NCBI GenBank assembly: GCA_002305675.1
Contig: DBQA01000006.1
Location: 123,581-187,580 of the forward strand
DNA from: Patescibacteria group bacterium UBA1406
Lineage (GTDB): Bacteria; Patescibacteriota; Microgenomatia; UBA1406
Direction of reading: 5' to 3'
Length of the DNA stretch: 64,000 bases
Positions 15,301-63,337 of this stretch are shown here, in pieces; the stretch's first letter is position 1, and each line of letters starts with the position of its first letter. The notes beneath the pieces were generated by a model. That model was not told the DNA's origin, searched no databases, and saw only the letters and a program-made list of their open reading frames with translations. Made by a program: the position numbers and the translations under genes.

Positions 15301-16599
15301 TCAAAAAGCAGAATAGCTTTTCCGCCGCAACAGGAGGTGGTATTTCCTGGCAAACCGGTGCGCCTCGTCCCTGACCCGCTGCAGATAGTGCAAGGCCGGT
15401 GACTCCCTGTCCAGACGGACCGTCCTCAACCCCTCGGCCAGGACGACCCGGTCCGGTCTTTTGGCCAGACCGATCATGGGCGGCAGGGCCGGGTACCGTT
15501 CTTTCAGGACCGGATATGCACCCAGAAGCTGGGGTGTACCGCCGTCAATGACCATGAGATCGGCCGTTTGCCATTCCTTATGCCTCATTCGCCTGTCTAG
15601 AACCTCAAGGAGCATGGCCGGATCGAACTTTTTCCGGGTCCGGACCCTGAAGCGGCGGTACTCCTCCTTCAGTGGCACCCCTCCCTCGAACACCACCATG
15701 GAGGCTGTGGCCTTCTTAAAGGAAAGATTGCTGATATCGTAGCACTCCACCCTGCCAATCCTGGGGATACCCAATTCCTTCGCCAGCTCGCGGTTCTCCC
15801 TTTTCCTGACGTCGGCAATGAAGTTGGCATCCTCCAGCCTGCCATCCAGGATGAGGTTCTGCGAAAAAAGCTTTTCCAAATAAAAGATCCTGTCCCTGAG
15901 AAGCGCAGCCTGTTCGAACTCCTCCCTGTCGGCATACTCCTTCATCTCTTTCTCCAGGACGGAGATCAGCCTTCTTCCTCCGCCTCCCAAAAGCCTGATG
16001 ACGCGCCTGATATTCTCCTGATAGCGCTCTTTTTGCTTTCCGGCCTCGGACCTGTCGGGCTGATTGGCCGTTTCATTGGGACAGGGATCGCACAGACCGA
16101 TGTGGCTGTAGAAACAGGGTTTGGAGGTGAGACTCTTCTCACTGCAGAACGGGACCACCCGTCTGATCTTCCGTAATAGGAGGCGGCCGTCTCTCGCCGA
16201 GGACAGAGGACCGAACACGAACCTTTCCGCCGAGAGTTCGGTCCTTCTTTTCAGCCTCACCTTGCCATAGGTCCCCCTGGTCACGACGATATAGATGGGG
16301 CTTTTGTCGTCCTTGAGGGCCGCATTGTATTTAGGCATGTGCTTGCGCACCAGGTTTGCCTCCAGGACCAGGGCTTCGAACTCCGAGTTGGTTTCCCTGA
16401 GCCTGATGCTGGCCGTGCTTTTGACGATCGCTCTTTCCTTCGGACTGGATGTGTCTTGGAAATGCTGTTTGATCCTAAGACGGAGATTGACCGCTTTGCC
16501 GATATAGATCGGTTTGCGGGCGGTGTCGAGGAACATATAGACCCCTGTCCGCGAGGGGGTCTTTTTCCATATCCTGGTGTCGCGGGCGCTGATGATCAT
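15301..16599 (-). CDS. uvrC: excinuclease ABC subunit C (short form lacking C-terminal HhH2)
   Basis: 432 aa; GIY-YIG (GVYMFLDTARKPIYIGKAVNLRLRIKQHF), UVR motif (EEFEQAALLRDRIFYLEKL), RNaseH-like endonuclease motif (VECYDISNLSFKKATASMVVFEGGVPLKEEYRRFRV); ends before the usual (HhH)2 domain. Confidence 0.88.
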   Translation of the reverse strand: MIISARDTRIWKKTPSRTGVYMFLDTARKPIYIGKAVNLRLRIKQHFQDTSSPKERAIVKSTASIRLRETNSEFEALVLEANLVRKHMPKYNAALKDDKSPIYIVVTRGTYGKVRLKRRTELSAERFVFGPLSSARDGRLLLRKIRRVVPFCSEKSLTSKPCFYSHIGLCDPCPNETANQPDRSEAGKQKERYQENIRRVIRLLGGGGRRLISVLEKEMKEYADREEFEQAALLRDRIFYLEKLFSQNLILDGRLEDANFIADVRKRENRELAKELGIPRIGRVECYDISNLSFKKATASMVVFEGGVPLKEEYRRFRVRTRKKFDPAMLLEVLDRRMRHKEWQTADLMVIDGGTPQLLGAYPVLKERYPALPPMIGLAKRPDRVVLAEGLRTVRLDRESPALHYLQRVRDEAHRFARKYHLLLRRKSYSAF

Positions 16600-18455
16600 G
16601 ACCTGAGTTTAACATATACGAGGACCAGAAGCCCGACCGCCACCCCTAGGAAAACGCCCTTATATGCGTCATATATGTGCAGGTACGCCGCCCTGAGGGT
16701 GTACTCTTTTTCCAGGAGGGTGTTCCCGTCGACCCGGATCTGAAGGCGGCCTTTTTTCTGCATAGCCACTTTTGGGCTGTCGACCACAAACTTGACCTCT
16801 TTCTCTCCATATGGTTCAAGGACATCGACGGTCCGTGATGCCAGCACGGTGGAGCTCTCGGGGTCAACAAGCTCCACCCGGACATTATAAAGGAAGATGT
16901 TAGACATGGAGTCCAGCACGAACCCGAAAGTGTTCCGGCGGCCGGCCACCCAGTTCAGCTCCTTGGTCATCAGGCCCGCCACCCCCCTCTTATCCTCGGG
17001 GACCTCCTCGGTCCCCTCGACAAAGACATCCTTAGTGTTTTCCTTTATCTTGTAGACTCCGGCCGGCAGGGGGTAGGTCGGGTCTTTCCCATGGTAAACG
17101 AAAGCGATGTGGGACAGGTCCATGTTTGCATAGTAATCCAGGCCGGCAGTATCACCCCAAGTGGGGTCGACCGGCCGCCAGCTTTCCCTGGCCGTATCAT
17201 AATACTCCGGCCAGGCATGCAGCACATCGCCCAAAAACGACAACGGTGTCAGTTCGGGATCGCGGGTGAGGGCATAGCCTACAACTTCCCTGGCCGGGAT
17301 CCCCTTTTCCCTGGCAATGCCGATGAAAAGATCCGTGTACTCCATGCAGACCGCCTGCCCTGGATTGTTCAGGGCCCACTCGGCCCCCATCCTCTTCAGC
17401 CCGCTATTTATCCGGCCGGTGTCATATTCCAGCTTGGCTATGACATAGTTATAGATGTCGAAGGCGTTGGTAAGGCCGGCACTCTCCACTTTCGCCAGGG
17501 AGGCGTCCGACAACTGCCAGTATTTCTCCATTGTCAGATACCTGTTCCGTTCTGTTGACGAGAGTTTTTCCCGGACATAACTTCTCACTTCCTCCCTGGG
17601 TTCGGTGGTCAACTCCGCTATTCCCTGGAAGACCACCTTCTGGACCGTGTTCGCCGGTATGCGGTAAACACCCATATAGTTTCCGTCCTCGTCCAGGTAG
17701 ACACGTTCCGGTTTGGGAGAGATGTCGTCCACATACACCTTCTGGAACACCCCGTCCGGGACAAAAGGGATGGTGAAGCGGCGGGGATAGGGCACATTGT
17801 TGGCCAGAGAGTAATTGAGCGTCAGGCGGTAGTGGGCCATCCTCGCGAACGATATATAGAGGGTCTTGCCCATATGTTCCCTGACATCTGTAAAACGGTA
17901 CAGGCCGGGACCCGCCTCCCTGGCCAGGGGTTTACTGATTCCAAGCTCGGGAAAATCGGCCGGGACCCTGACGTCTATGGTGTAAGCGGTCAGCTCCTCC
18001 GTGCTTGAGGGGCGGTTGACCGGGATCAGTAGTTCCCGGTGGGCACCCGAGACCGTGACCAGGCCATCCAGCCCGTATCTGATGGTGATCCTTTTCACTG
18101 TCCCCCGGCCGACCGCCGGATTGGCAAACTTGACCTTGACGGTCAATCGATCGTTCTCCATCGTTTTCTGGAAGGTAAGCTCCCGGCCGTCCTCGAAAAC
18201 GGCCAGGGCGTTCATCCTGTCGGGGCTCCGGAACGTGAAAGCATACTCGCTGACATACAGCCTGGCGGTCAGGTTGGTCAAAGTGATCTGTCTCTCTATG
18301 ACGGCGTCTTCGCCGCTGCCGAGGGTATAGGTATCATGGTACACCGTCTGAACTATCTTTTCCCCTTCGGGCACGGGCTCCTGGCCGAGAACAGGGGTCA
18401 GGGACAACAGGAAAACCGCCAGTGATACGGCCATCGTTTGCAGTAGTTTACCCAT
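16596..18455 (-). CDS. secreted transglutaminase-like cysteine protease-fold protein with C-terminal TM anchor
   Basis: 619 aa; signal peptide; Cys-His-Asp triad context GQAVCMEYTDLF ... HAWPEYY ... VDPTW; C-terminal hydrophobic helix + KLRS. Confidence 0.7.
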   Translation of the reverse strand: MGKLLQTMAVSLAVFLLSLTPVLGQEPVPEGEKIVQTVYHDTYTLGSGEDAVIERQITLTNLTARLYVSEYAFTFRSPDRMNALAVFEDGRELTFQKTMENDRLTVKVKFANPAVGRGTVKRITIRYGLDGLVTVSGAHRELLIPVNRPSSTEELTAYTIDVRVPADFPELGISKPLAREAGPGLYRFTDVREHMGKTLYISFARMAHYRLTLNYSLANNVPYPRRFTIPFVPDGVFQKVYVDDISPKPERVYLDEDGNYMGVYRIPANTVQKVVFQGIAELTTEPREEVRSYVREKLSSTERNRYLTMEKYWQLSDASLAKVESAGLTNAFDIYNYVIAKLEYDTGRINSGLKRMGAEWALNNPGQAVCMEYTDLFIGIAREKGIPAREVVGYALTRDPELTPLSFLGDVLHAWPEYYDTARESWRPVDPTWGDTAGLDYYANMDLSHIAFVYHGKDPTYPLPAGVYKIKENTKDVFVEGTEEVPEDKRGVAGLMTKELNWVAGRRNTFGFVLDSMSNIFLYNVRVELVDPESSTVLASRTVDVLEPYGEKEVKFVVDSPKVAMQKKGRLQIRVDGNTLLEKEYTLRAAYLHIYDAYKGVFLGVAVGLLVLVYVKLRS

Positions 18456-29603: not shown

Positions 29604-31301
29604 ATGAATATCCGATTATTTATCACAACCCTGTTCCTTTTAAGCAATATTCTCGTACGGATACCGGCTGTATCGGCCCAGGGCCCCGGCCAGACGGAGG
29701 CCATCCACATGGTCTGTCTGAACGCAACAGTCGTCAAGAACGCTTCGGTCGACCATGCCGTCAAGCTTGACGGGGCAGGATTTATCCCCAACAAGCAGGT
29801 GGAGATCTGGCGAAAGGTGGAAGCAGGTTTCCAGTGTGCAGTAGACAAGAACGGCTCCCCAACCTGCAACGACACCGACTTTTCCGTCGGCGATATGTTC
29901 AAGGTCATCAACAAGAGCAAGGAAGAAATAAAATCCGATTTCAACGGCAGTCTGTCGGTGGACCTGGTCAAGAGCGCCACCACCACCAGCCAACAACATG
30001 TGTTCTATGGCGTACAGACGGTTGAAGGCAGCAACCTGGAGGCCACCACTGTCGCCCTGAAGCTGGCCACCTTCACCCCCGTGACCGGTGACCAAGTAAA
30101 CTGTGTTTCGGTGCGGTGGGACCCGTACGGGCGCGTGTTCGATGCCGTCAGCCTGGAGCCTATCCCGAATGTCGATGTCACCCTGATGGACGAGACCGGC
30201 GCCAAAGTGCCGAGCCAGCCGGGTATCAAGAATCCGTTCCGGACCCGCGAGGATGGCGCCTTCAGCTTTATCGTCGAGGACGGGACATATTTCCTGGAAC
30301 CCAAAAAGACTACCTACTCTTTTCCCATCCTGCAGACCGAACTGGACGGTCTTAAAACGAAACAGTCAGTCTACACTGACATTTACCGGGGCGAAAAGAT
30401 CATCCAGCAGGGCAAGATACAGCACCGGGATATCCCCATGAACCCGCAAGATCCGGCGAACGCCACCAGTTATCCACCCAAGATCATGAACCTTGACATC
30501 ACCGCCTATAAAAAAAGCGACAAGTCTTACCAACTGGTGTACGGAACTGTCTCACATCCCAAGAGCATCATCTATGCCTACTCGGGCGTCAGATTGGTGG
30601 GCCAGACCGAGGCGGACAATCAGGGGAAGTTCGATCTGGTGATCGAGAACGATAGCATCGACCAGAACATCCCGCTTGACATCAAAGCCAAGAAGGTCAG
30701 CTTGCTAGCCAAGGGAAAGTCCTTCCTTTCCCGGCTAGTCGGGCAAGTGATGGCGGCGGTGGAGACGGAGAGTCAGATGGTCCAAATAAAGCCTATTCCG
30801 ACCTTTCTGATCGGTTTCATCTATGACAAGCAGGGTCAGATAGTCCCGCACTCTAAGGTGCAAATCATAGTACCGGAGATGAACAACCGGATAATCGCGA
30901 CCGTCCAGGCGGATGAGAACGGTCATGTCTATATTCCTCCCCAGCTCATCCCGCCCGTCGGCTATGTGGTCAAAACGTATGACCAGAACGGGCAGGTAGC
31001 CAGTGAGTTCACCCCGCAGGAATTCATCGAAACAAACCAGAAATATTACAGCGACCGGAAGATCAACCTGTATGACCTGGCGAGCGCCGAAACGATAGAA
31101 AACGAGCTCACGAAGAATTCCGGCCAGACCCCACTCGCGCAAAACTTCCGCATCACCCCAGCGGTGACCGAGGTGGCCACCGACCAGGCGGGTAAGGGCA
31201 ACGATTATATCCTGGCGGTTCTGTCCCTCGTTATTGTGGGCGTGTTGGGAGGACTGGGATTGGTTCTCTACCGGATGAAGTCCAGAAGCTCTGTCGTCTG
31301 A
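29604..31301 (+). CDS. large secreted protein with carboxypeptidase-regulatory-like/Ig-like beta domains and C-terminal TM anchor
   Basis: 565 aa; signal peptide (LFITTLFLLSNILVRIPAVSAQG); beta-rich repeats (VSVRWDPYGRVFDAVSLEPIPNVDVTLMDETGAKV...); C-terminal YILAVLSLVIVGVLGGLGLVLYRMKSRSS. Confidence 0.55.
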   Translation: MNIRLFITTLFLLSNILVRIPAVSAQGPGQTEAIHMVCLNATVVKNASVDHAVKLDGAGFIPNKQVEIWRKVEAGFQCAVDKNGSPTCNDTDFSVGDMFKVINKSKEEIKSDFNGSLSVDLVKSATTTSQQHVFYGVQTVEGSNLEATTVALKLATFTPVTGDQVNCVSVRWDPYGRVFDAVSLEPIPNVDVTLMDETGAKVPSQPGIKNPFRTREDGAFSFIVEDGTYFLEPKKTTYSFPILQTELDGLKTKQSVYTDIYRGEKIIQQGKIQHRDIPMNPQDPANATSYPPKIMNLDITAYKKSDKSYQLVYGTVSHPKSIIYAYSGVRLVGQTEADNQGKFDLVIENDSIDQNIPLDIKAKKVSLLAKGKSFLSRLVGQVMAAVETESQMVQIKPIPTFLIGFIYDKQGQIVPHSKVQIIVPEMNNRIIATVQADENGHVYIPPQLIPPVGYVVKTYDQNGQVASEFTPQEFIETNQKYYSDRKINLYDLASAETIENELTKNSGQTPLAQNFRITPAVTEVATDQAGKGNDYILAVLSLVIVGVLGGLGLVLYRMKSRSSVV

Positions 31302-39545: not shown

Positions 39546-39791
39546 ATGCCCAATATCCAATCTGCGAAAAAGAAATTAAGGCAGGACAAAAAAAGGTACG
39601 AGCTTAACTTATTTTATAAAAACCGCTACAAAAAAGCAGTCCGGGCTTTCATGGCCGATCCCAAAAAGGAAAATCTCGACAAGGCGGTTTCCCTGATCGA
39701 CAAGGCTGCCAAAAAGAACGTTATACATGAGAATACAGCTGGCAGGCTAAAGTCTAAATTGAGCAAACTACAGGCATCAAAACATGGCTAA
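39546..39791 (+). CDS. rpsT: 30S ribosomal protein S20
   Basis: 81 aa; MPNIQSAKKKLRQDKKRYELN...HENTAGRLKSKLSK typical of S20. Confidence 0.92.
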   Translation: MPNIQSAKKKLRQDKKRYELNLFYKNRYKKAVRAFMADPKKENLDKAVSLIDKAAKKNVIHENTAGRLKSKLSKLQASKHG

Positions 39792-40308
39792 ACAGTTCCG
39801 CTTCAACCTTTTGGCAAAAAAGGGGGGGAACTTATTTGAAGAGACAGCTTCTTTCTTCAATAATTATGCCAGATACATCATCATCCTGACGCAGCTTGTG
39901 GTCCTGGTGGTCTTTTTCATCAAGATCATCCTGGACCAGACGGTCATCGACCTGAAGGAGGCCATAGACCAGAAGAACCAGATCATTCTATCCTCTCAGG
40001 AAATGATCAACAACAGTAACGCCCTGGCGGACAAGACGCGCGACCTGACCGTCCTCATCGATACCATAGAAAAACAGCACGCCAAGATCTACACCACTCT
40101 CAAGAACGTCCCCAAGACTATCATCCTGGACAAGATAGAGCTTGTCAACAACCGTTTTGTGATCGTGGGCCATACCTTCGAGCCGACCGACATCCAGAAA
40201 CTACAGGTCAGGCTGTCCAAGAAAACAGGGTCCAACGTCTCTATCGAAAGGATCAGTAAAGAGCATAACGTTTATAATTTCGAGATTTATATCCTGGATG
40301 AAACCTAA
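39784..40308 (+). CDS. PilN-like bitopic membrane protein (N-terminal FNLL motif, TM, coiled coil)
   Basis: 174 aa; N-terminus QFRFNLLAKK resembles the PilN INLLP motif; single TM (IIILTQLVVLVVFFIKIIL); periplasmic coiled coil. Confidence 0.45.
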   Translation: MAKQFRFNLLAKKGGNLFEETASFFNNYARYIIILTQLVVLVVFFIKIILDQTVIDLKEAIDQKNQIILSSQEMINNSNALADKTRDLTVLIDTIEKQHAKIYTTLKNVPKTIILDKIELVNNRFVIVGHTFEPTDIQKLQVRLSKKTGSNVSIERISKEHNVYNFEIYILDET

Positions 40309-40852
40309 ACAGAAGAAAAGGATCAGTCACGACTATAAGGTCATATCGTTCCTCATTCTGACCATAGCCTTTTTCGGCCTGTTCGCCATCAGACCCTCGG
40401 TCACCATGATCGTATCGCTGCAAAAGGAAAAACAGGAATACGAGAACATCAACCGGGTGCTTGAGAGCAAGATACAGCAGATAATCGCCACCCAAACCAC
40501 CTACATGAAGATCCTCGACAAGAAAGCGCTTATCAACGATGCCATTCCCGATCATCACGAAGTGCAGAAAACCGCCGAGCTTTTCCGCGATCCCATCGAC
40601 ACCACCGTGTTCACGGTCAAAGGTATCCGTATCCTGCCGCCGGAAAAGGAGGGCCTGAACACGATCGTCATCAGCTTCAGCGGCGACGGCGATTTTGCGG
40701 CCATGATGGACTTCCTGGACTACATCTATGACTCCCGGAGGCTTTTCACTTACCGGATGTTCGGGATGCAGATCAAGCCGGCCGGGACCGAAAGCGCCCT
40801 CCTCAACTTGACGACAGACCTACAAACCTACTACTATGTAGGTAAGCAGTGA
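40298..40852 (+). CDS. PilO-like bitopic membrane protein
   Basis: 184 aa; short basic N-terminus, TM (ISFLILTIAFFGLFAI), coiled coil, C-terminal alpha/beta domain; overlaps previous gene by 11 nt. Confidence 0.4.
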   Translation: MKPKQKKRISHDYKVISFLILTIAFFGLFAIRPSVTMIVSLQKEKQEYENINRVLESKIQQIIATQTTYMKILDKKALINDAIPDHHEVQKTAELFRDPIDTTVFTVKGIRILPPEKEGLNTIVISFSGDGDFAAMMDFLDYIYDSRRLFTYRMFGMQIKPAGTESALLNLTTDLQTYYYVGKQ

Positions 40853-40862
40853 TTTTTTTACT

Positions 40863-41069
40863 ATGAAAAGGGATAATGTTGCCGGCAAAAGGGAGTTCTT
40901 GTATTTCTCGTTGGTGTTCCTAATGACCGTGGTGGCCTGGATAGTGGTCGAGGTATACCACCTGGAAAAGAACAAGAAATTCACCGTCGAGTACCAGGAA
41001 AGCATGGGCGTGGAGATCAAACCCCTGCCAAAGGTTGATATCCTGGAAAAGTTGGAAGGGAAAAAATGA
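40863..41069 (+). CDS. small single-TM protein (hypothetical)
   Basis: 68 aa; TM FLYFSLVFLMTVVAWIVV; co-oriented inside the membrane-protein cluster; stop overlaps next start. Confidence 0.4.
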   Translation: MKRDNVAGKREFLYFSLVFLMTVVAWIVVEVYHLEKNKKFTVEYQESMGVEIKPLPKVDILEKLEGKK

Positions 41070-42355
41070 GCTACTACTTTCTTTACAAACCGAAAAAGGT
41101 ACCAACTCTCCTCGCCTACTCGTTTATCATCGTCACCACCCTGGGGCTGACACTTCTTTTAAAGGGCGGCCAGACCAGGAATCTGGTCTCCCGGGCCACC
41201 AAGAACCTGATACCGCAGAACCTCATCGTCAGTAACATCACCTCCACCTCGGCCACCGTCAGCTTTACCACGGAAGTCCCGGCCAAAACGGTGGTCAAGT
41301 ACGGCAGCGGCAATTCCTTGGACAAGGTTAGGTTCGACGAGCGCGACCTCCAGTCACAGACCGCCAGAAGGATCCACTACTTCATCCTCCGGGAACTGTC
41401 CCCCAGTTTAAGGTACAAGTTCGCCGTGTCAGTGGAAGGGCGAGAGCATGGGTCCGGAGACCCGGACTACCAGTTTACCACCCTGAGTTCGTCCATACCC
41501 CCCTCCTCGCATCCACCGTTATTCGGCAAAGTGGTCGATAAGAGCCTGAACGGCGCACCCGAAATCCTGGTCGAACTGACCGTCGCCAAAAGCCCGGGAT
41601 TCAGGTTCACCACCCTGACCAAGGAGACCGGGGAATGGATCATTCCCCTACCGGTGGTCCTGGACAATAGCTATCGTTCCATCACCCTGGCCGAATCCGA
41701 CACCGTTTCCTTCACCTTCAGGGATGCCGATAATACCCGGTCCGCTGCCAGAGCCTATTACAAGGACGGGAGGCCATTGAAAACAGTGGTGATAGGACAG
41801 GACTACGATTTCACGCTCACCGGGTCTGCCGGGGTTCTGGGCACAAACAAGGCAAAAGGGACTGGGAAATATGTCCTTTACCCAAGAACGAATTCCATCA
41901 TCACCACCATGTACCCATCCTTCCGGGGAACTGGAAAGGCCGGTTCCATCATTCAGCTGTCCGTGCAGCCGAATGCCTTCAGCGCCCTTGTGAACGTCGA
42001 CCGGAACGGAGAATGGCGCTACGAGAACAAAACACCGCTCATGCCCGGAAAGTATGAGCTGACCGCAACCGAGAAAGGGGCCGGCTGGACTGAAAAAATC
42101 GTCTTCCTTGTCGGTAAAAGCGGCGAAACGGTCCTCGGCGAGGCAACCCCGTCCGCCTCCATCACCCCTGACTACGGGCCGACCGTGGAGCCGACCGGCC
42201 TGCTGGGAGGGTTGCCAACCTACGCTCCCACCCCGTCACCCGTCGCCCCCACCGTGACCCAGCCTGCCATCCCTGTCGCCGGAGTGAGCAATAATCTATT
42301 GATCCTGATGGCTTCGGGTATCAGTTTATTTGGACTGCTTTTAGTTTTATATTAG
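41066..42355 (+). CDS. surface protein with FN3/purple-acid-phosphatase-N-like domain, Pro/Thr linker, N- and C-terminal hydrophobic segments
   Basis: 429 aa; N-terminal TM; FN3-like (IVSNITSTSATVSFTTEVPAKTVVKYGSG...LSPSLRYKFAVSVEG); C-terminal ...PAIPVAGVSNNLLILMASGISLFGLLLVLY. Confidence 0.55.
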   Translation: MSYYFLYKPKKVPTLLAYSFIIVTTLGLTLLLKGGQTRNLVSRATKNLIPQNLIVSNITSTSATVSFTTEVPAKTVVKYGSGNSLDKVRFDERDLQSQTARRIHYFILRELSPSLRYKFAVSVEGREHGSGDPDYQFTTLSSSIPPSSHPPLFGKVVDKSLNGAPEILVELTVAKSPGFRFTTLTKETGEWIIPLPVVLDNSYRSITLAESDTVSFTFRDADNTRSAARAYYKDGRPLKTVVIGQDYDFTLTGSAGVLGTNKAKGTGKYVLYPRTNSIITTMYPSFRGTGKAGSIIQLSVQPNAFSALVNVDRNGEWRYENKTPLMPGKYELTATEKGAGWTEKIVFLVGKSGETVLGEATPSASITPDYGPTVEPTGLLGGLPTYAPTPSPVAPTVTQPAIPVAGVSNNLLILMASGISLFGLLLVLY

Positions 42356-42364
42356 AATAGATAT

Positions 42365-43144
42365 ATGGACTTCCTTTTTGAATACCCGGTCATCCCCATA
42401 CTGGCCCTATTTGCCATAGGGGGAGTGTTCATCTATCAGGCCAAATCCTATCTTGATGAAAAGAAAAGGAACCAGGCCCCAAGCATCCCGAAGCTAAATA
42501 CCGCCAAGCTGAAAGACAACCCGCAGGAGTTCATGAAGAAGATCGCCCTGAACGAACAGGCCGCAGGCAAACCCAAGAAAGGCAAGGGCATCAAGATATT
42601 CCTGTCTCTAAGCATCATTCTGCTCATCACTGTAAATATGGTCGGCCTGATCTATTTCCTGGGGAACAAGCGGACCACCTATATTCCGAGAGCCAGCACT
42701 TCCCCTACTGCTGTCCCGACCCTTTTTGTCCAGCCGACCGCCGAGCCGACGGATATCATCGACTTCGGTGATTCTTCCCTCTCCCCGACGGTCCCGGCCC
42801 TTTCACCGACACTAAGGCTTCCCTCGCCCACTTTGCCTCAGGCATCGCCCACGCTTCTGGCCTATAACCAGCCGCAACCGTCGAAAACCCCTACCCCGAG
42901 CCCCACCGCCCGGCCGACGGTCACGCCGCTAACCACCCAGGCCGTCCTGCCTACCAATACCCCCACTCCCATTTTCGTGGTGAGCCCGACAAATACGCCG
43001 ACACTTATCCCTTCCCCCACCCAAAAACCCCTGCCGACACCGACCGGAGTTGATAAGGGAATCCCTGAAGCCGGACTCATACAGTTCTCCACCGTCCTCC
43101 TTTTGTTGAGCGTGCTTTTCCTGACTATCGGGTTTGCATTATAG
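42365..43144 (+). CDS. Pro/Thr/Ser-rich membrane protein with C-terminal IPEAG + hydrophobic tail
   Basis: 259 aa; N-terminal TM, second TM, about 130-aa P/T/S-rich low-complexity region, C-terminal ...GIPEAGLIQFSTVLLLLSVLFLTIGFAL; overlaps the topA stop convergently. Confidence 0.5.
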   Translation: MDFLFEYPVIPILALFAIGGVFIYQAKSYLDEKKRNQAPSIPKLNTAKLKDNPQEFMKKIALNEQAAGKPKKGKGIKIFLSLSIILLITVNMVGLIYFLGNKRTTYIPRASTSPTAVPTLFVQPTAEPTDIIDFGDSSLSPTVPALSPTLRLPSPTLPQASPTLLAYNQPQPSKTPTPSPTARPTVTPLTTQAVLPTNTPTPIFVVSPTNTPTLIPSPTQKPLPTPTGVDKGIPEAGLIQFSTVLLLLSVLFLTIGFAL

Positions 43145-45136
43145 CTTGGGCAGCCAAAGCGTAGTGTAGCGGCAATCCGGATACCTGTCACAGGCATAGA
43201 AGCGTTTTTTCTTGCGGGAGAACCTGACCACCAACTCTCCCTGTTTGCATTCGGGGCAGGCAGTCCCCGTCTTTTCCAGGAAGCTCTTGGTATACCGGCA
43301 TTTGGGGAAATTGGAGCAGGCGTAGAACCTGCCAAACCTGGACATCTTGATGACGAGCATCGCCCCACATTCCGGGCAGGCTTCCGTCGTTTTTTCCTCC
43401 ACTTTTATTTTATCCGTATCCTTGTAAGCGACCTCCAGTTCCTGGCTGAGGGGAGAATAAAATCTCCCGACCAAATCCCGCCATTTTATCTTACCCAGAG
43501 CAACATTATCGAGTTCGTCCTCCATTTTGGCGGTAAAGGAGATGTCGAAAACGTTGACGAATTTTTTAACCAATAGGTCCGACACGCTCATGCCAAGTTC
43601 CGAGGGGACCAACTCCCGGCCCTGCTTTTCCACGTAGTGCCTTTCCTGGATGAGTGAGATGATAGGGGCATAGGTGGACGGACGGCCTATCCCCCGGGCC
43701 TCAAGCGTCTTCACCAAAGTCGCCTCCGAATAGCGGGGTGGCGGCTGGGTGGCCTTTTCTTCCAATTCTATGTCCAGCAACTTGATGGGCTGGCCTTTGG
43801 CCAGGCCGGTGATTAGCTCCTTTTCCTTCTTTTCCTTCATGCTCAGGATCAGGAACCCGGGAAACATTATCTGCTCCCGTTCGGTCCTGAACACATCGTC
43901 GGACCCGGAAACGATCAGAATCTTCTGTCTGAGGATAACGGCCTCTTTCATCTGAGTGGACAGGCTGCGGTTGTATATCAGGAAATAAAGCTTGCGCTGT
44001 TCCCCTCTTAATCCCGCTAACTTTTGGCTATCGGGATGGTTTTGGACATTGGTCGGGCGGATGGCCTCATGCGCCTCTTGGGCCAGTTTAGACTTCTGCT
44101 TGTAGCGCCTGATCTTTTCGGATAAGTAGCCCTGTCCATACTTTTTCGCTATATAGGCCCTGGCCTCATTGATGAATTTTTCGGAGATATTGAAGGAATC
44201 TGTCCGGTGGTAGGTTATCAACCCCTCCTCATACAGGGATTGGGCTATGCGCATGGCCCTTTTCGCCGTAAAACCGAAGGCCGAACCGGCATTCTGCTGC
44301 AGGGTTGAGGTGATGAAAGGCGGCGGAGGGGTGCGGCTGCTTCTGTTCTCCGATACCTCGGCTATGGCGTATTTCTCCGTTGTCAACCTGCCCGTCTCCT
44401 CCTTTGCGCTCTTTTCATCCTTCAGCAGACTGGACTGGTATTCGTATTTGCCGTCAAAAAGCTCCAGTTTGTCCGTCCGGTAGAACTCCTTTCCTAAAAG
44501 TTTCACGAGTTTCGCTTCCAGCGGGCCGCCGTGATCGAAAAAACCCTTGACGGAAAAGTATGCCTCCGTTTTGAATTTGTTCCTTTCTTTTTCCCGCTCC
44601 ACAATAATCCTCAGGGCGACCGTCTGCACCCTGCCGGCAGAGAGCCAGCTCTTGGAGAACTTCTTCCAAAGGTAAGGGGAGATCTTATAGCCGACTATCC
44701 TGTCCAGCACCCTTCGTGCCTGCTGGGCGTCGAAAAGCTCCTGGTTCAGCGGCCGGGATTTTCCCAGCGCTTCCCTGAGAGCGCTTTCGGTAATCTCGTG
44801 AAAAACGATACGGTCATAGGCCAGCTTCTTCTTTATCTTGGAACGCAAAATATCGCCGATGTGATAGGCGATCGCCTCTCCCTCGCGGTCCGGGTCTGTG
44901 GCCAGTATCACCTTCTCTGCCTTCCTGGCTTCCCTGACCAGGGGATCCACTACCTTTTTCTTCCCAGGGATTATTTCGTAATCAGGCTCAAAGTTATCCT
45001 CCAGGTCTATCCCGAGCTTCTTCTTGGGCAGGTCCCGAATATGGCCCATGCTGGAAATGATGCTGAAATCCTTCTTGTCCAAGAACTTCCCGAACGTCTT
45101 AGCTTTGGTCGGGGACTCCACTATGATAAGCTGCAT
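43139..45136 (-). CDS. topA: DNA topoisomerase I
   Basis: 665 aa; TOPRIM N-terminus (LIIVESPTKAKTF...GHIRDLP), catalytic Tyr domain, C-terminal Cys4 zinc ribbons (CPECG...C). Confidence 0.97.
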   Translation of the reverse strand: MQLIIVESPTKAKTFGKFLDKKDFSIISSMGHIRDLPKKKLGIDLEDNFEPDYEIIPGKKKVVDPLVREARKAEKVILATDPDREGEAIAYHIGDILRSKIKKKLAYDRIVFHEITESALREALGKSRPLNQELFDAQQARRVLDRIVGYKISPYLWKKFSKSWLSAGRVQTVALRIIVEREKERNKFKTEAYFSVKGFFDHGGPLEAKLVKLLGKEFYRTDKLELFDGKYEYQSSLLKDEKSAKEETGRLTTEKYAIAEVSENRSSRTPPPPFITSTLQQNAGSAFGFTAKRAMRIAQSLYEEGLITYHRTDSFNISEKFINEARAYIAKKYGQGYLSEKIRRYKQKSKLAQEAHEAIRPTNVQNHPDSQKLAGLRGEQRKLYFLIYNRSLSTQMKEAVILRQKILIVSGSDDVFRTEREQIMFPGFLILSMKEKKEKELITGLAKGQPIKLLDIELEEKATQPPPRYSEATLVKTLEARGIGRPSTYAPIISLIQERHYVEKQGRELVPSELGMSVSDLLVKKFVNVFDISFTAKMEDELDNVALGKIKWRDLVGRFYSPLSQELEVAYKDTDKIKVEEKTTEACPECGAMLVIKMSRFGRFYACSNFPKCRYTKSFLEKTGTACPECKQGELVVRFSRKKKRFYACDRYPDCRYTTLWLPKL

Positions 45137-45178
45137 AATCCTTGTATTTTAACAAAAAAAGATATATCATTTATAAGT

Positions 45179-45817
45179 ATGAATAATCCTGACAAGAACG
45201 AGTCAGCCTGGGTGACTGAACCCGGTGAAGAGCAGAACCCCCAGAAAAAAAGCCTTTTTTTCAAGGGAGTGGAACTTGTTTTCGACTTCCTGCAGAGCAT
45301 TGCCCTCGGGGGGGCTTTCTTCATCGTCATCTACCTGTTCGTTGTCCAGCCCCACCAGGTCAAGGGTAATTCCATGTACCCGACTTACAAGGACAAGGAG
45401 TACATACTGACCGACAAGATCTCTTACAAATTCCGCTCTCCTGAAAGAGGGGAGATCATCATCCTCAAGTCCCCGAAGAACCCCGACATTGACTTTATCA
45501 AGCGGATTATCGGCCTGCCCGGAGACAAGATAAAGATAGCGGACGGTCACGTATACGTGAATGACGGCGAACTATCCGAAACATATGTCGGCGCGGGCAT
45601 TGATACCCCCGTATTCCCCGGCGGCTTCATCCAGGAAAACGTGGAAGTGATCATTCCTCCGGAACATTTTTTCGTGATGGGGGATAACCGCCCCGGCTCA
45701 TCGGATTCGCGGGAATTCGGTTTTGTGCCTTTTGCCAATATTATCGGCCGGGTGGTTTTCCGGTATTACCCTTTTTCAGAGGCAGGGATAGTGGTCACTC
45801 CGGAGTATAATCTTTAA
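45179..45817 (+). CDS. lepB: signal peptidase I
   Basis: ATG at 45179 inside the longer ORF 44531..45817, whose upstream part is antisense to topA; N-terminal TM; catalytic Ser box VKGNSMYPT; Lys box KRIIGLPGD; GDNRPGSSDSR. Confidence 0.85.
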   Translation: MNNPDKNESAWVTEPGEEQNPQKKSLFFKGVELVFDFLQSIALGGAFFIVIYLFVVQPHQVKGNSMYPTYKDKEYILTDKISYKFRSPERGEIIILKSPKNPDIDFIKRIIGLPGDKIKIADGHVYVNDGELSETYVGAGIDTPVFPGGFIQENVEVIIPPEHFFVMGDNRPGSSDSREFGFVPFANIIGRVVFRYYPFSEAGIVVTPEYNL

Positions 45818-61389: not shown

Positions 61390-61417
61390 ATTATATCAAA
61401 GTGGATTGAAGTGTCAC
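61390..61417 (-). promoter_or_regulatory. putative promoter for tRNA-Val (-35 GTGACA 61417..61412, 16-nt spacer, -10 TATAAT 61395..61390, minus strand)
   Basis: Reverse complement of 61390..61417 reads GTGACActtcaatccactttgaTATAAT, about 19 nt upstream of the tRNA 5' end. Confidence 0.4.
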
Positions 61418-62034
61418 CTCAGGTAATTCCCGTAGAGAGAATCGAATATGTCCTGGACCTCCTCTGACAGGCCCGGTTCGGTGAAGGAGCCGGTCATGGT
61501 GTAAACAGTGTTTCTCCTGACATATATCCTCTGTTCCAGGTTGACCGCCTGCCCGTTGGAAACGTGGCTGCCGCCCAGGACCCGCAGATAATAGTTGTCC
61601 TTGGTGGTGACAAAATCCTTGCTGTAGCTAAGCGCGGGAATGGCGGAATAGGCTCCCTGGATGAGCCGGTATGTATACTCGTTCGGGTCACCGACCTCGG
61701 CCTGGTTCCTGATCAGGACGACCGAGGGAACGAACTCCCCTTCGCGGACCTGCTTCTCAACCCTGACTTCCACCCTGTCGGATGCGCTTGGCTTGACCCT
61801 CCAACCCTGGGGAAGGTCCAGTTCTTTTTCTGTCCGGGTGGGTGCCAGGCCTTCCGTGACCGGGGGGCGGCCGCCGTTTGCGTTCTGGCTGCGGCGGTTC
61901 TCATTCACCCTCAAAAGGCCGATGAACAGGATCAAAAGCCCGACTATCAACAGGGCGGTCAGGATATTCTGCCGGCCATTTTTTGTATTTGAAGTTTTGG
62001 TCTGGGTTTTTCTCGGTCTGCCTGTTTTGGCCAT
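61414..62034 (-). CDS. membrane-anchored hypothetical protein immediately downstream of sortase
   Basis: 206 aa; basic N-terminus, single TM (ILTALLIVGLLILFIGLL), about 150-aa extracytoplasmic domain; 4-nt gap to the sortase stop. Confidence 0.5.
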   Translation of the reverse strand: MAKTGRPRKTQTKTSNTKNGRQNILTALLIVGLLILFIGLLRVNENRRSQNANGGRPPVTEGLAPTRTEKELDLPQGWRVKPSASDRVEVRVEKQVREGEFVPSVVLIRNQAEVGDPNEYTYRLIQGAYSAIPALSYSKDFVTTKDNYYLRVLGGSHVSNGQAVNLEQRIYVRRNTVYTMTGSFTEPGLSEEVQDIFDSLYGNYLR

Positions 62035-62038
62035 AGTT

Positions 62039-63337
62039 TTACTGATTAACTGATGCTCTAACTACTATTCTGAGGTCCGGGTCGGCCTGGGCGCAGGTGA
62101 TAAGAGCGATCTCATCACGGGAGTTACCGGAGAGGACCGATGCCTCCTTCTGGGAAACAGCCTGCACCGAATCCACGGTATAGATCACTGCTTCGCCAAC
62201 TTTGGCCAGAACTATCTGGTCTCCGGCCGCCAGGGTATAAAGATCTCCGAATAGGCCAGCCGAATTGTGACCGTAAAAGACGTTGTTCCCTGCTTCAAGG
62301 ACTTCCCCGTCACCCACCAGATATTCATTGCCCATCATTTCCGCACGGTAGACCTGCTGGTGCAGGCCGAGCTTGCCGATCATGAGGCTTACTCCCGCTA
62401 CCGCTTCGTTCCCGGAAGGGAGCTTTTCACTGGCAGCCAGAAGATTGTCAGCGCCTGTTTTGGGCAGCTTCTTGTCCTTGGCACCCAACACGCCGCCATA
62501 TGTCCTCTGGATGCCTTCCACCAGGGGGTTGTAATTGTCCTGGACGCCCAGTACCTGGGGTTGTGACGTTGCAACCGCTCCCAGGACAACCGGGTTCGTG
62601 GGAGAGGGGCTTTCCGGAGTGGAAGATGAACCGCCACCGTTTCCTCCCCCTCCACCACCGCCGTTACTTGGGGCTGTGGTCGGGGTCGGAGTTGCAGTCG
62701 GTGTAGCCGTGGGTGTCGGCGTACTGGTCGGTGTCGGAGTGTTAGTTGGTGTTGGATCCGGCTTCTCGGGATCTTTCGGATCTTCCGTATCCGTTGGCGT
62801 GGGCGTTGGGGTATACGTAGGCGTGGGAGTGTCAGTAGGAGTCGGGGTATCCGTCGGGGTAGGTGTATTCGTCGTAGTCGGGGTAGCTGGATCTTCTAAT
62901 CTAAAACTAGCATGGCTAATCTCCTGAGTGTTACCATTCTGGTTAGTTACGGTACTATTTATCGTAATTGTTCCCTCTTGAGGAGGATTAACATTACTAT
63001 AGTTGACAGTATTGGCAGCTTTATAACACCACTCGACTACTAACTTACCTTCGGGAATAATATATGCGTAGCTTACAGCCTCGATTTTATCAACCTTATC
63101 CCAACCATTGCCTGATTCTGGACATACAGCCTACTGGGCACTTACCAGCATCGTCTTGGCAAGCATCAAAGAAACTATAGACAAGTAGAAAAAGGCGGTG
63201 AGAGTTAATATAGTATGGACTTTAGGATTTCCCAGAATGGCCTTGATTTTTTTCGCTATACCAGTCATCAAAATACAAGGATAGCACAAAGGCTTGTTAT
63301 TTTCAACTATACTTTTTACTATAAACACTTTTTCCAA
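62039..63337 (-). pseudogene. sortase-family transpeptidase gene (433 codons) interrupted by one in-frame TAG (63131..63133) between signal anchor and ectodomain; pseudogene, assembly error or readthrough candidate
   Basis: Catalytic domain in ORF 62039..62521 (FYGHN His, IALITC Cys, RIVVRA Arg). Same frame is open upstream for 203 codons (N-domain, PT-rich linker, Gly run) to the TAG. Codons 63337..63134 encode a signal anchor (MEKVF...KIKAILGNPKVHTILTLTAFFYLSIVSLMLAKTMLVSAQ). All coordinates are in one frame (1299 nt = 433 codons). Confidence 0.7.

Follow-up and report, generated by a model that had tools for sequence, protein, structure and literature searches.

The P1 and P2 genes are adjacent in a 64-kb window of contig DBQA01000006.1 from Patescibacteria group bacterium UBA1406 (the window is the whole stretch of DNA analyzed, and coordinates refer to it unless another locus is named). 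Their products are envelope proteins with similar C-terminal endings. We favor, with moderate confidence, the reading that these endings are sortase signals derived from LPXTG, and that a sortase processes both proteins into membrane–wall tethers tied to the PilN/PilO machinery of type IV pili. The signal is a lineage-specific, eroded form that comprises [L/I]-P-x-[T/S/A/V/L]-G, 3–4 polar residues, and a hydrophobic terminal helix of ~19 residues, with no basic tail. An initial annotation of this DNA had drawn attention to both endings, and its description of them is accurate. IPVAG is followed by 23 and IPEAG by 22 uncharged residues, a Pro/Thr linker precedes the motif, N-terminal transmembrane (TM) segments are present (one in P1, two in P2), and a positively charged tail is truly absent. 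The features concerned are as follows (pLDDT, predicted local distance difference test; AF2, AlphaFold2).

41066..42355, plus strand: P1, 429 aa, ending ...TVTQPAIPVAGVSNNLLILMASGISLFGLLLVLY
42131..42157, plus strand: P1 VLGEATPSA (residues 356–364), within the most conserved P1 segment; predicted to be disordered (pLDDT <50)
42158..42268, plus strand: P1 Pro/Thr-rich linker (residues 365–401), sequence-variable and disordered in the AF2 model
42269..42283, plus strand: P1 pentapeptide IPVAG (residues 402–406), a variant of the LPXTG-type motif
42284..42352, plus strand: P1 tail after the Gly, 23 uncharged residues, consisting of VSNN and a 19-residue hydrophobic helix at the protein end
42365..43144, plus strand: P2, 259 aa, ending ...GVDKGIPEAGLIQFSTVLLLLSVLFLTIGFAL
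42386..42436, plus strand: P2 TM1 (residues 8–24)
42590..42661, plus strand: P2 TM2 (residues 76–99)
43061..43075, plus strand: P2 pentapeptide IPEAG (residues 233–237)
43076..43141, plus strand: P2 tail after the Gly, 22 uncharged residues up to the C-terminus

LPXTG ancestry of the P1 and P2 endings

P1 ends ...QPAIPVAG-VSNN-LLILMASGISLFGLLLVLY and P2 ends ...DKGIPEAG-LIQF-STVLLLLSVLFLTIGFAL, with a Pro/Thr-rich linker upstream of the pentapeptide in both. As in LPXTG signals, a pentapeptide of an accepted variant lies no more than ~35 residues from the C-terminus, and the hydrophobic stretch behind it (18–19 residues) is long enough to span the membrane. The basic tail of LPXTG signals is lacking, there being no Lys, Arg, or His downstream of the pentapeptide in P1 or P2.

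Genome and metagenome collections yielded ~90 related loci, across which 92 distinct tails for P1 and 37 for P2 were compared. In P1, Gly is present in all 92 tails and Pro in 85; position 1 is Pro, Ile, Leu, or Ala, and position 4 is mostly Thr (30) or Ser (30), and otherwise Leu (12), Pro (5), Ala (4), or Val (3), with orthologue pentapeptides that include PPVSG, PPVTG, PPRSG, PPKTG, LPSTG, LPATG, IPTTG, IPELG, and IPQLG. For P2, both Pro and Gly are found in 37/37 tails, position 1 is Leu (24) or Ile (11), and position 4 is Ala (13), Thr (10), Ser (9), Val (4), or Leu (1); pentapeptides include LPETG (4 tails), LPESG (5 tails), LPQTG, LPATG, LPSTG, IPKTG, and LPVAG. Because orthologues have canonical or near-canonical pentapeptides at exactly the same site, IPVAG and IPEAG can be read as drifted LPXTG motifs; judged from these sequences, the window motif is an LPXTG-derived [LI]Px[TA]G variant within a continuous series that reaches textbook LPXTG. 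Variant pentapeptides are known from sortase substrates elsewhere: LPXAG has been described in S. aureus and in S. uberis (PMC3436756, PMC2657157), the pneumococcal pilin RrgB has the sortase motif IPQTG (PMC5640630), and the class B sortase motif is (N/S/P)PXTG (PMC8225981). The earlier proposal of a C-terminal sorting domain therefore stands insofar as two otherwise unrelated, adjacent envelope proteins share a sorting-signal-like domain, but the label "non-LPXTG" does not, given LPETG, LPQTG, LPATG, LPSTG, IPKTG, IPTTG, and PPKTG at the same site in orthologues.

P403 and G406 of P1 are unchanged in 26 homologues that share just 25–47% identity with P1. Across 94 aligned P1 sequences, conservation is 1.00 for Gly and 0.93 for Pro, and the preceding linker is variable; the conservation of Gly and Pro beside a variable linker indicates selection on the motif. 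In a monophyletic clade of 13 diverged sequences with IPxLG, which has a single origin, Ile, Pro, and Gly are invariant despite the Leu at position 4.

That P1 and P2, which are unrelated, share the motif after Pro/Thr-rich linkers of the wall-spanning kind also supports a sorting signal. The window was scanned for stop-to-stop open reading frames (ORFs; ≥60 aa) with an LPXTG-like pentapeptide and a hydrophobic end, and the only real genes recovered are P1 and P2; the remaining matches of the pentapeptide scan are spurious ORFs or an internal LPLTG inside FtsW. A total of 1.34 Mb (the 64-kb window and the 10-kb flanks of related loci) holds 1,327 distinct ORFs with a minimum length of 100 aa; 103 of these have an uncharged hydrophobic C-terminal 18-mer, and 100 of the 103 are members of the P1 and P2 families. 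Outside these families, such ends occur in ~3 of ~1,230 ORFs. The initial annotation had asked about enrichment of the tail beyond the two proteins; in the sequence read, the tail is confined to these two families, and the scans argue that the shared ending is not due to chance. A chance likeness of two ordinary C-terminal TM anchors might be suggested by how little the endings have in common, namely two fixed residues (Pro and Gly) and hydrophobicity. Nevertheless, Pro and Gly are invariant over 26 to >90 orthologues, and the motif is present in both families in every genome; together with the rarity of such ends elsewhere, this conservation effectively refutes a coincidence, to which we give almost no credence.

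Other C-terminally anchored envelope proteins of the window (a transglutaminase-like protein, 16596..18455; and a 565-aa CarboxypepD_reg-like protein, 29604..31301, plus strand) do have basic tails. The latter ends in a plain TM helix and basic tail (...LVLYRMKSRSSVV / ...GLVLYRMKSRSSVV) and has no P..G motif, in contrast to P1 and P2 inside the same genome. The base composition near the P1/P2 locus is unremarkable.

P1 consists of a conserved cytoplasmic N-terminus (MSYYFLY..KK), a single N-terminal TM helix (residues 12–32), three beta-sandwich (Fn3/Ig-like) domains, a conserved linear motif, the Pro/Thr linker, and the putative sorting signal, in that order; Pfam matches are to Big_13 (1.5e-6), Pur_ac_phosph_N (3.3e-6), and fn3 (9e-4). 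The AF2 model (mean pLDDT 78.7) has helices at residues 14–35 and 409–428, beta domains at ~51–349, and a disordered stretch at 354–408. In this model the motif sits in the disordered stretch directly upstream of the terminal helix, and is predicted to be exposed at the membrane surface rather than buried.

The linear motif ahead of the linker belongs to the segment KSGE.VLGEATPSA (residues 351–364; 42116..42157), with a mean column identity of 0.86 when all 94 sequences are counted and of 0.93 within the close clade. A VLG-x-[AS/ST]-T element is likewise found directly before L[PA]xTG in canonical signals of the type seen in the candidate phyla radiation (CPR), namely in P0037, P0051, P0053, P0061, and P0063. 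The presence of VLG-x-[AS]-T in P1 supports the reading of its ending as a sorting signal, and the element may represent an extended recognition element of CPR sortases. VLGEAT was also considered as a general motif of neighboring proteins and was rejected: P1 is the only protein of the syntenic loci that has it, and outside them it was seen only in unrelated Pro/Thr-rich matches and in one CLIPPER-domain protein (L100, 4290..6839, minus strand), where VLGDTSPA precedes a TM segment and basic tail.

P2 consists of TM1, a Lys-rich loop, TM2, a Pro/Thr-rich linker of ~125 aa, and the putative sorting signal; it has no folded ectodomain and matched no Pfam or NCBIfam family. In other lineages (L012–L018, L039, L040, L044, L060, L066, L078, etc.), P2 function is split over two genes downstream of P1: P2a, with two TM helices and a beta domain, which ends ...KIEAQLHS..DGWLGE; and P2b, with a signal anchor, a Pro/Thr/Ser linker, and an LPXTG tail. 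By comparison of these sequences, the window P2 looks like a composite, with the two-TM N-terminal portion of P2a followed by P2b's linker and tail.

A conserved [S/P]-R-A-[S/T] is located a few residues past the N-terminal TM segments, as VSRAT in P1 (41186..41200) and IPRAS in P2 (42683..42697), and K-[AT]-K-A-[SA] occupies this position in P2b of other loci. Signal peptidase I, the gene for which lies ~1 kb downstream (within 44531..45817), may cut at this motif. The conserved cytoplasmic N-terminus of P1 argues for a retained anchor over a cleaved secretion signal.

Candidate sortase and proposed processing

The candidate processing enzyme is encoded toward the high-coordinate end of the window.

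62039..63337, minus strand: sortase gene, interrupted by an in-frame TAG; the ORF 62039..63130 holds the sortase domain
~63134..63268, minus strand: sortase signal/anchor peptide
63131..63133, minus strand: in-frame TAG, directly after the signal/anchor peptide (...LVSAQ-stop-AVCPESG...)
62408..62560, minus strand: pre-catalytic segment, reading GGVLGAKDKKLPKTG, with GGVLG at 62483..62497 and LPKTG at 62453..62467
62264..62278, 62090..62104, and 62054..62074, minus strand: catalytic motifs with His (FYGHN), Cys (LITCA), and Arg (LRIVVRA), respectively

Past the TAG, the gene encodes a small Cys domain, a Pro/Thr linker, a conserved pre-catalytic segment, and the catalytic domain. The last of these matches the Pfam Sortase family (E 4.4e-15; 56 bits against a cut-off of 26.6), and this sortase is the sole candidate sorting enzyme in the window, which supports the sortase reading of the P1 and P2 tails. 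None of the NCBIfam models for sortase classes A–F reaches its cut-off (the best is class C, with 31.8 against 160 bits), and the general sortase_fam model also remains below it (31.6 against 39.35 bits). The nearest solved structure is the B. anthracis-type sortase 2kw8 (E 3e-7), and the protein is weakly closest to class A structures. A family of sortases is reported to be found nearly throughout the Microgenomates (PMC6744442). The initial annotation had placed an unusual sortase at 62039..63337; a sortase domain is indeed present, but the gene is not one intact ORF.

Approximately 55 sortase-family representatives (P0032–P0042 and P0091–P0139) share the segment VLG..DNYNPLV.GI..SY.G.VLG.ST-L[PAM]xT[GA]...KLPSGN directly before the catalytic domain; the VLG-x-[ST]-T element of P1 and of canonical signals thus recurs inside the sortase family. 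P0037 has the N-terminal module of the sortase, but ends in a real sorting signal (EVLGIST-LASTG, TM, and KIKE); the module together with a true signal makes the sortase look like a substrate module fused to an enzyme. To judge from its sequence, the internal motif of the sortase may be a pseudo-substrate or a site of self-processing or self-cleavage. The protein encoded directly downstream of the sortase gene (61414..62034, minus strand; L099, 11004..11600; L100, 11216..11752) was present in 3/3 genomes examined; it is ~180–206 aa long, comprises a TM helix at the N-terminus and a domain of ~150 aa outside the cytoplasm, and gave no Pfam or NCBIfam match.

In the mechanism that we propose, P1 and P2 would be inserted by Sec, and their N-terminal TM segments together with the C-terminal helix would hold both proteins in the membrane. 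A membrane-associated sortase would then cut between position 4 and the Gly, and the new C-terminus would be passed to lipid II and subsequently to peptidoglycan. The products would be membrane–wall tethers, of which P1 would contribute three Ig/Fn3-like domains and a Pro/Thr linker, and P2 essentially a Pro/Thr strap. Because P1 and P2 would already be held by their N-terminal anchors, we propose that a basic retention tail is dispensable in these proteins. Genes for MurJ, MraY, a Mur ligase, MurG, and FtsW/RodA in the window indicate that a cell wall is made.

Alternatives to sortase processing

Several observations weigh against processing by a sortase. At E ≤ 1 to 10, neither TIGR01167 nor Gram_pos_anchor (PF00746) matches the window P1 and P2, and none of the curated models for C-terminal sorting domains in Pfam and NCBIfam matches them. 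Against the orthologue tails, TIGR01167 aligns over model positions 1–26 of 34 and scores 8.4–15.7 bits (cut-off 15.9). The alignment as such speaks for an LPXTG-type signal; the scores remain below the cut-off because the basic-tail part of the model finds nothing to align. The canonical-looking controls P0037 and P0053 likewise fall below the cut-off, which indicates that TIGR01167 is insensitive in this lineage. Lys and Arg are absent from all 37 P2 tails and from the last 8 residues of 65/85 P1 tails; the most distant P1 homologues (P0020, P0022, P0023, and P0027) retain Arg-containing tails. Full tripartite signals are found in unrelated Pro/Thr-rich proteins from the sortase search (QVLGASTPTQ-LPSTG-TM-KIRKLV and EVLGIST-LASTG-TM-KIKE), which were called CPR-like through similarity to the N-terminal module of the sortase; the tail-less form therefore appears to belong to the P1 and P2 families and not to the lineage.

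The terminal helix itself has properties that are unexpected in a discarded peptide, namely fixed length and strong conservation. Exactly 22 residues follow the Gly in 36/37 P2 tails, and 23–24 in most P1 tails. Conservation of the P1 helix is 0.44 family-wide (compared with 0.39–0.43 for the folded domains), and in the window clade, at 0.87 vs. 0.55, it is the best-conserved part of P1. Fifteen close orthologues share I413, S417, S420, L421, G423, L424, L426, and Y429 without exception, and the helix has a pattern of small residues (SGxSxxG, with G.G in distant members). In a neighbor-joining tree built on the ectodomain alone, P1 lost the Pro, the residue that sortases need most, ~4–5 times independently while keeping the Gly and the helix; P2b of the loci concerned still has LPxTG. 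Position 4 is Ala, Val, or Leu in the window clade vs. the near-invariant Thr of the internal L[PA]xT[GA] of the sortase, and covariation of P1 and P2 at this position within genomes was not detectable (Fisher p = 0.43, 29 genomes).

The remaining adverse points concern the enzyme. In 93 loci, no sortase was found at a distance of up to 10 kb from the pilN-pilO-P1-P2 cluster, and there is accordingly no evidence of co-localization aside from L100 and the window, where the distances are 6–10 and 19 kb. Furthermore, the window sortase is interrupted by the in-frame TAG, although its orthologues are uninterrupted. In an independent Logan assembly that covers this contig or population (L101, 9149..10453), the N-terminal module of the sortase differs at 295 aligned positions, the flanks are identical, and the stop is at another place, within the linker. 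The interruption may therefore reflect a strain-variable module, possibly through chimeric assembly of strain variants, rather than a true pseudogene.

An alternative that we consider somewhat unlikely, and yet the most serious of those weighed here, is that the terminal helix is a permanent anchor, such that P1 is held at both ends and P2 is a three-TM protein with a Pro/Thr-rich outer loop; P-x-x-G would then be an uncleaved relic of LPXTG that now acts as a helix cap, a hinge, or a docking site in the PilN/PilO complex. The conserved helix with its small-residue pattern, the length fixed at 22–24, and the missing basic tail are all consistent with this, as are the Ala, Val, or Leu at position 4 in the window clade and a Gly retained in 100% of P1 tails even in the ~4–5 lineages without Pro. 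In addition, the conserved cytoplasmic MSYYFLY of P1 is the mark of a protein that resides in the membrane and is not secreted, and a study of CPR pili interprets the C-terminal TM helices of pilus-associated Fn3/chaperone proteins as membrane anchors (10.64898/2026.03.03.709456). However, a plain hinge leaves unexplained why 35/37 P2 tails have L/I-P-x-[T/S/A]-G, exact LPETG included, why Ile, Pro, and Gly are invariant through a diverged clade of 13 sequences, and why P1 has the VLG..T element that is typical of sortase substrates.

A truly new sorting system, in which a non-sortase enzyme (such as a rhomboid-, exosortase-, or CAAX-like protease) reads [IV]PxAG with a tail-less helix, is in our view highly improbable. 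The architecture of the tail, with rigid length and no basic residues, is unlike that of every curated C-terminal sorting domain, the window P1 and P2 match no NCBIfam model, and the enzyme could be encoded elsewhere, the part of the genome inspected being 64 kb. Nevertheless, the motif grades continuously into LPXTG among orthologues, neither the window nor the conserved neighborhood of 93 loci encodes a polytopic candidate for a processing enzyme, and the tail is found in only two families, compared with the many families of PEP-CTERM and GlyGly-CTERM systems. A prepilin-peptidase site, with a Gly followed by a hydrophobic stretch, was also considered and rejected, because the topology is reversed (the motif is outside and the helix runs from out to in) and there is no Glu at +5.

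Among known systems, P1 and P2 most resemble class A LPXTG signals (including LPXAG and LPX(A/S)G of Staphylococcus and Streptococcus): both have Pro at position 2, Gly at position 5, tolerance of Ala at position 4, a hydrophobic segment at the extreme C-terminus, and an upstream Pro/Thr-rich segment of the wall-spanning type, and there is an interrupted gene for a sortase domain in the window and exact LPETG or LPQTG in orthologues. They differ from class A signals in the absence of a basic tail, in Ile at position 1, and in Val or Leu at position 4 in sister lineages, as well as in having a tail of rigid length with a conserved helix, scores below the TIGR01167 cut-off, and N-terminal membrane anchors that are probably kept rather than a simple cleavable signal peptide. 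The P1/P2 signal is thus a class A-type variant and not a canonical member, since it lacks the basic tail and does not reach the hidden Markov model cut-off. Class C pilin signals (RrgB IPQTG) and class B or (S/P)PXTG signals have Ile or Pro/Ser at position 1, comparable to PPVTG, PPKTG, and IPTTG of P1 orthologues, but no pilin motif or isopeptide domain was identified in P1 and P2, and the sortase fits no curated class. The class E motif LAXTG of Actinobacteria is similar to CPR-type signals such as VLGIST-LASTG and ILGATT-LAGTG and to the internal segment of the sortase, which is often LAxTG, but P1 and P2 have Pro rather than Ala at position 2 (IPxAG).

The initial annotation had likened the endings to PEP-CTERM (exosortase), PGF-CTERM (archaeosortase), and GlyGly-CTERM (rhombosortase) domains, which share the general layout whereby secreted proteins end in a short motif and a TM helix. 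This likeness does not extend further: those systems use other signature residues, have a basic cluster past the helix, and pair a dedicated polytopic enzyme with many substrates in each genome; none of these was seen in the 64-kb window. There is no exosortase, archaeosortase, or rhombosortase among its annotated genes.

The pilN-pilO operon and the place of P1 and P2

P1 and P2 are the distal genes of an operon with the order rpsT-pilN-pilO-orf68-P1-P2, in which start and stop codons overlap or almost abut, and this order is kept in essentially all of the ~90 related loci. The genes upstream of P1 are as follows.

39546..39791, plus strand: rpsT, the 3' end of which overlaps the start of the pilN-family gene
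39784..40308, plus strand: pilN-family gene (174 aa, bitopic), identified by orthology and synteny
40298..40852, plus strand: pilO-family gene (184 aa, bitopic), identified by orthology
40863..41069, plus strand: orf68, for a conserved protein of 68 aa with one TM segment; the stop codon overlaps with that of the P1 start (ATGA)

The window copies of PilN and PilO have no match of their own at E ≤ 0.01, and so their family membership is inferred through orthology. Among syntenic orthologues, 30/37 match PilN (PF05137; best E 1.7e-11) and 36/38 match PilO (PF04350; best E 5.5e-11); T2SSM_b is also matched by 13 of the PilO orthologues, and the one in L002 has a precomputed PilO annotation. The window PilN-family protein has an N-terminal FNLL motif, like the INLL of PilN. 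orf68 sits between pilO and P1 in essentially every locus and gave no family match in Pfam or NCBIfam searches. PilN, PilO, PilM, PilB/T, and PilC are described as widespread in CPR, in which an outer membrane secretin is reported to be absent (PMC6744442).

Homologues of P1 that carry names are from Candidatus Roizmanbacteria (CPR/Patescibacteria, Microgenomates), and it is through them that the uncultivated source bacterium was placed as Roizmanbacteria-like. The rpsT-pilN-pilO-orf68-P1-P2, MurJ, and TopA block is also held by records of metagenome-assembled genomes titled "uncultured Gammaproteobacteria bacterium" (L007, L009, L010, L012, L014, and L017; GTDB representative contigs), labels that appear to be taxonomic misassignments.

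The cytoplasmic N-terminus of P1 (residues 1–13; 41066..41104) is highly conserved as MSYYFLY.KK.[IV]P, with M1, Y3, Y4, F5, L6, and P13 invariant in 15 orthologues, and P13 in 26. The N-terminus of PilN (INLL) binds PilM; by analogy, the conservation in P1 hints at a possible cytoplasmic binding partner. P1 follows pilN-pilO where diderms with the PilMNOPQ system have pilP/pilQ, and like PilP it is a beta-sandwich envelope protein. This likeness is an analogy of gene order, as no homology between P1 and PilP or PilQ was found by sequence or fold, and a Foldseek search of the P1 model for PilP, PilQ, and other pilus parts returned generic tandem Fn3/Ig arrays alone. Most probably, P1 and P2 are part of the machinery for type IV pilus alignment in this monoderm-like CPR bacterium.

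More tentatively, and as a combination that we regard as unlikely to hold in full, P1 and P2 could be fixed parts of the type IV pilus basal body in a monoderm CPR bacterium, stapled to peptidoglycan by a sortase with their N-terminal helices in the membrane, and thereby a strut in place of the diderm PilP/PilQ. The tail-less signal of fixed length would be tuned for resident membrane proteins, and the cognate sortase would be self-regulated by an in-cis "VLG..L[PA]xT[GA]" pseudo-substrate.

The window is otherwise of housekeeping character (ATP synthase, DnaE, UvrABC, the hrcA-grpE-dnaK-dnaJ operon, an LCP-family transferase, YceG, MurJ, TopA, signal peptidase I, IleRS, and RodA), including genes for wall synthesis and division (MraY, a Mur ligase, FtsW, MurG, FtsQ, FtsA, and FtsZ). 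Approximately 0.7–4.2 kb past its high-coordinate end, L101 (5146..8640) has a cluster of four genes, for a TasA/camelysin-like protein (with a faint Peptidase_M73 match), a small protein with an SGSMEP motif that resembles signal peptidase, a protein with a lamin tail domain (LTD), and a secreted protein of 328 aa; no LPXTG-type tail is present in these four proteins.

The literature searched contains no description of CPR sortase signals, or of sortase substrates linked to pilN-pilO operons. If P1 and P2 are processed as proposed, sortase signals in CPR/Patescibacteria may omit the "obligatory" basic tail and accept Ala, Val, or Leu at the scissile position. LPXTG predictors (TIGR01167, PF00746) would then overlook such signals, and wall-anchored proteins would be undercounted in CPR. 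Sortase anchoring would also be tied to a conserved pilN-pilO operon, which suggests how cells that lack an outer membrane fix a type IV pilus machine to their wall. Should the helix rather anchor the proteins permanently, P1 and P2 would exemplify an LPXTG signal turned into a structural membrane anchor. On either reading, the endings represent a lineage-specific variation of a well-understood theme, rather than a new sorting system.

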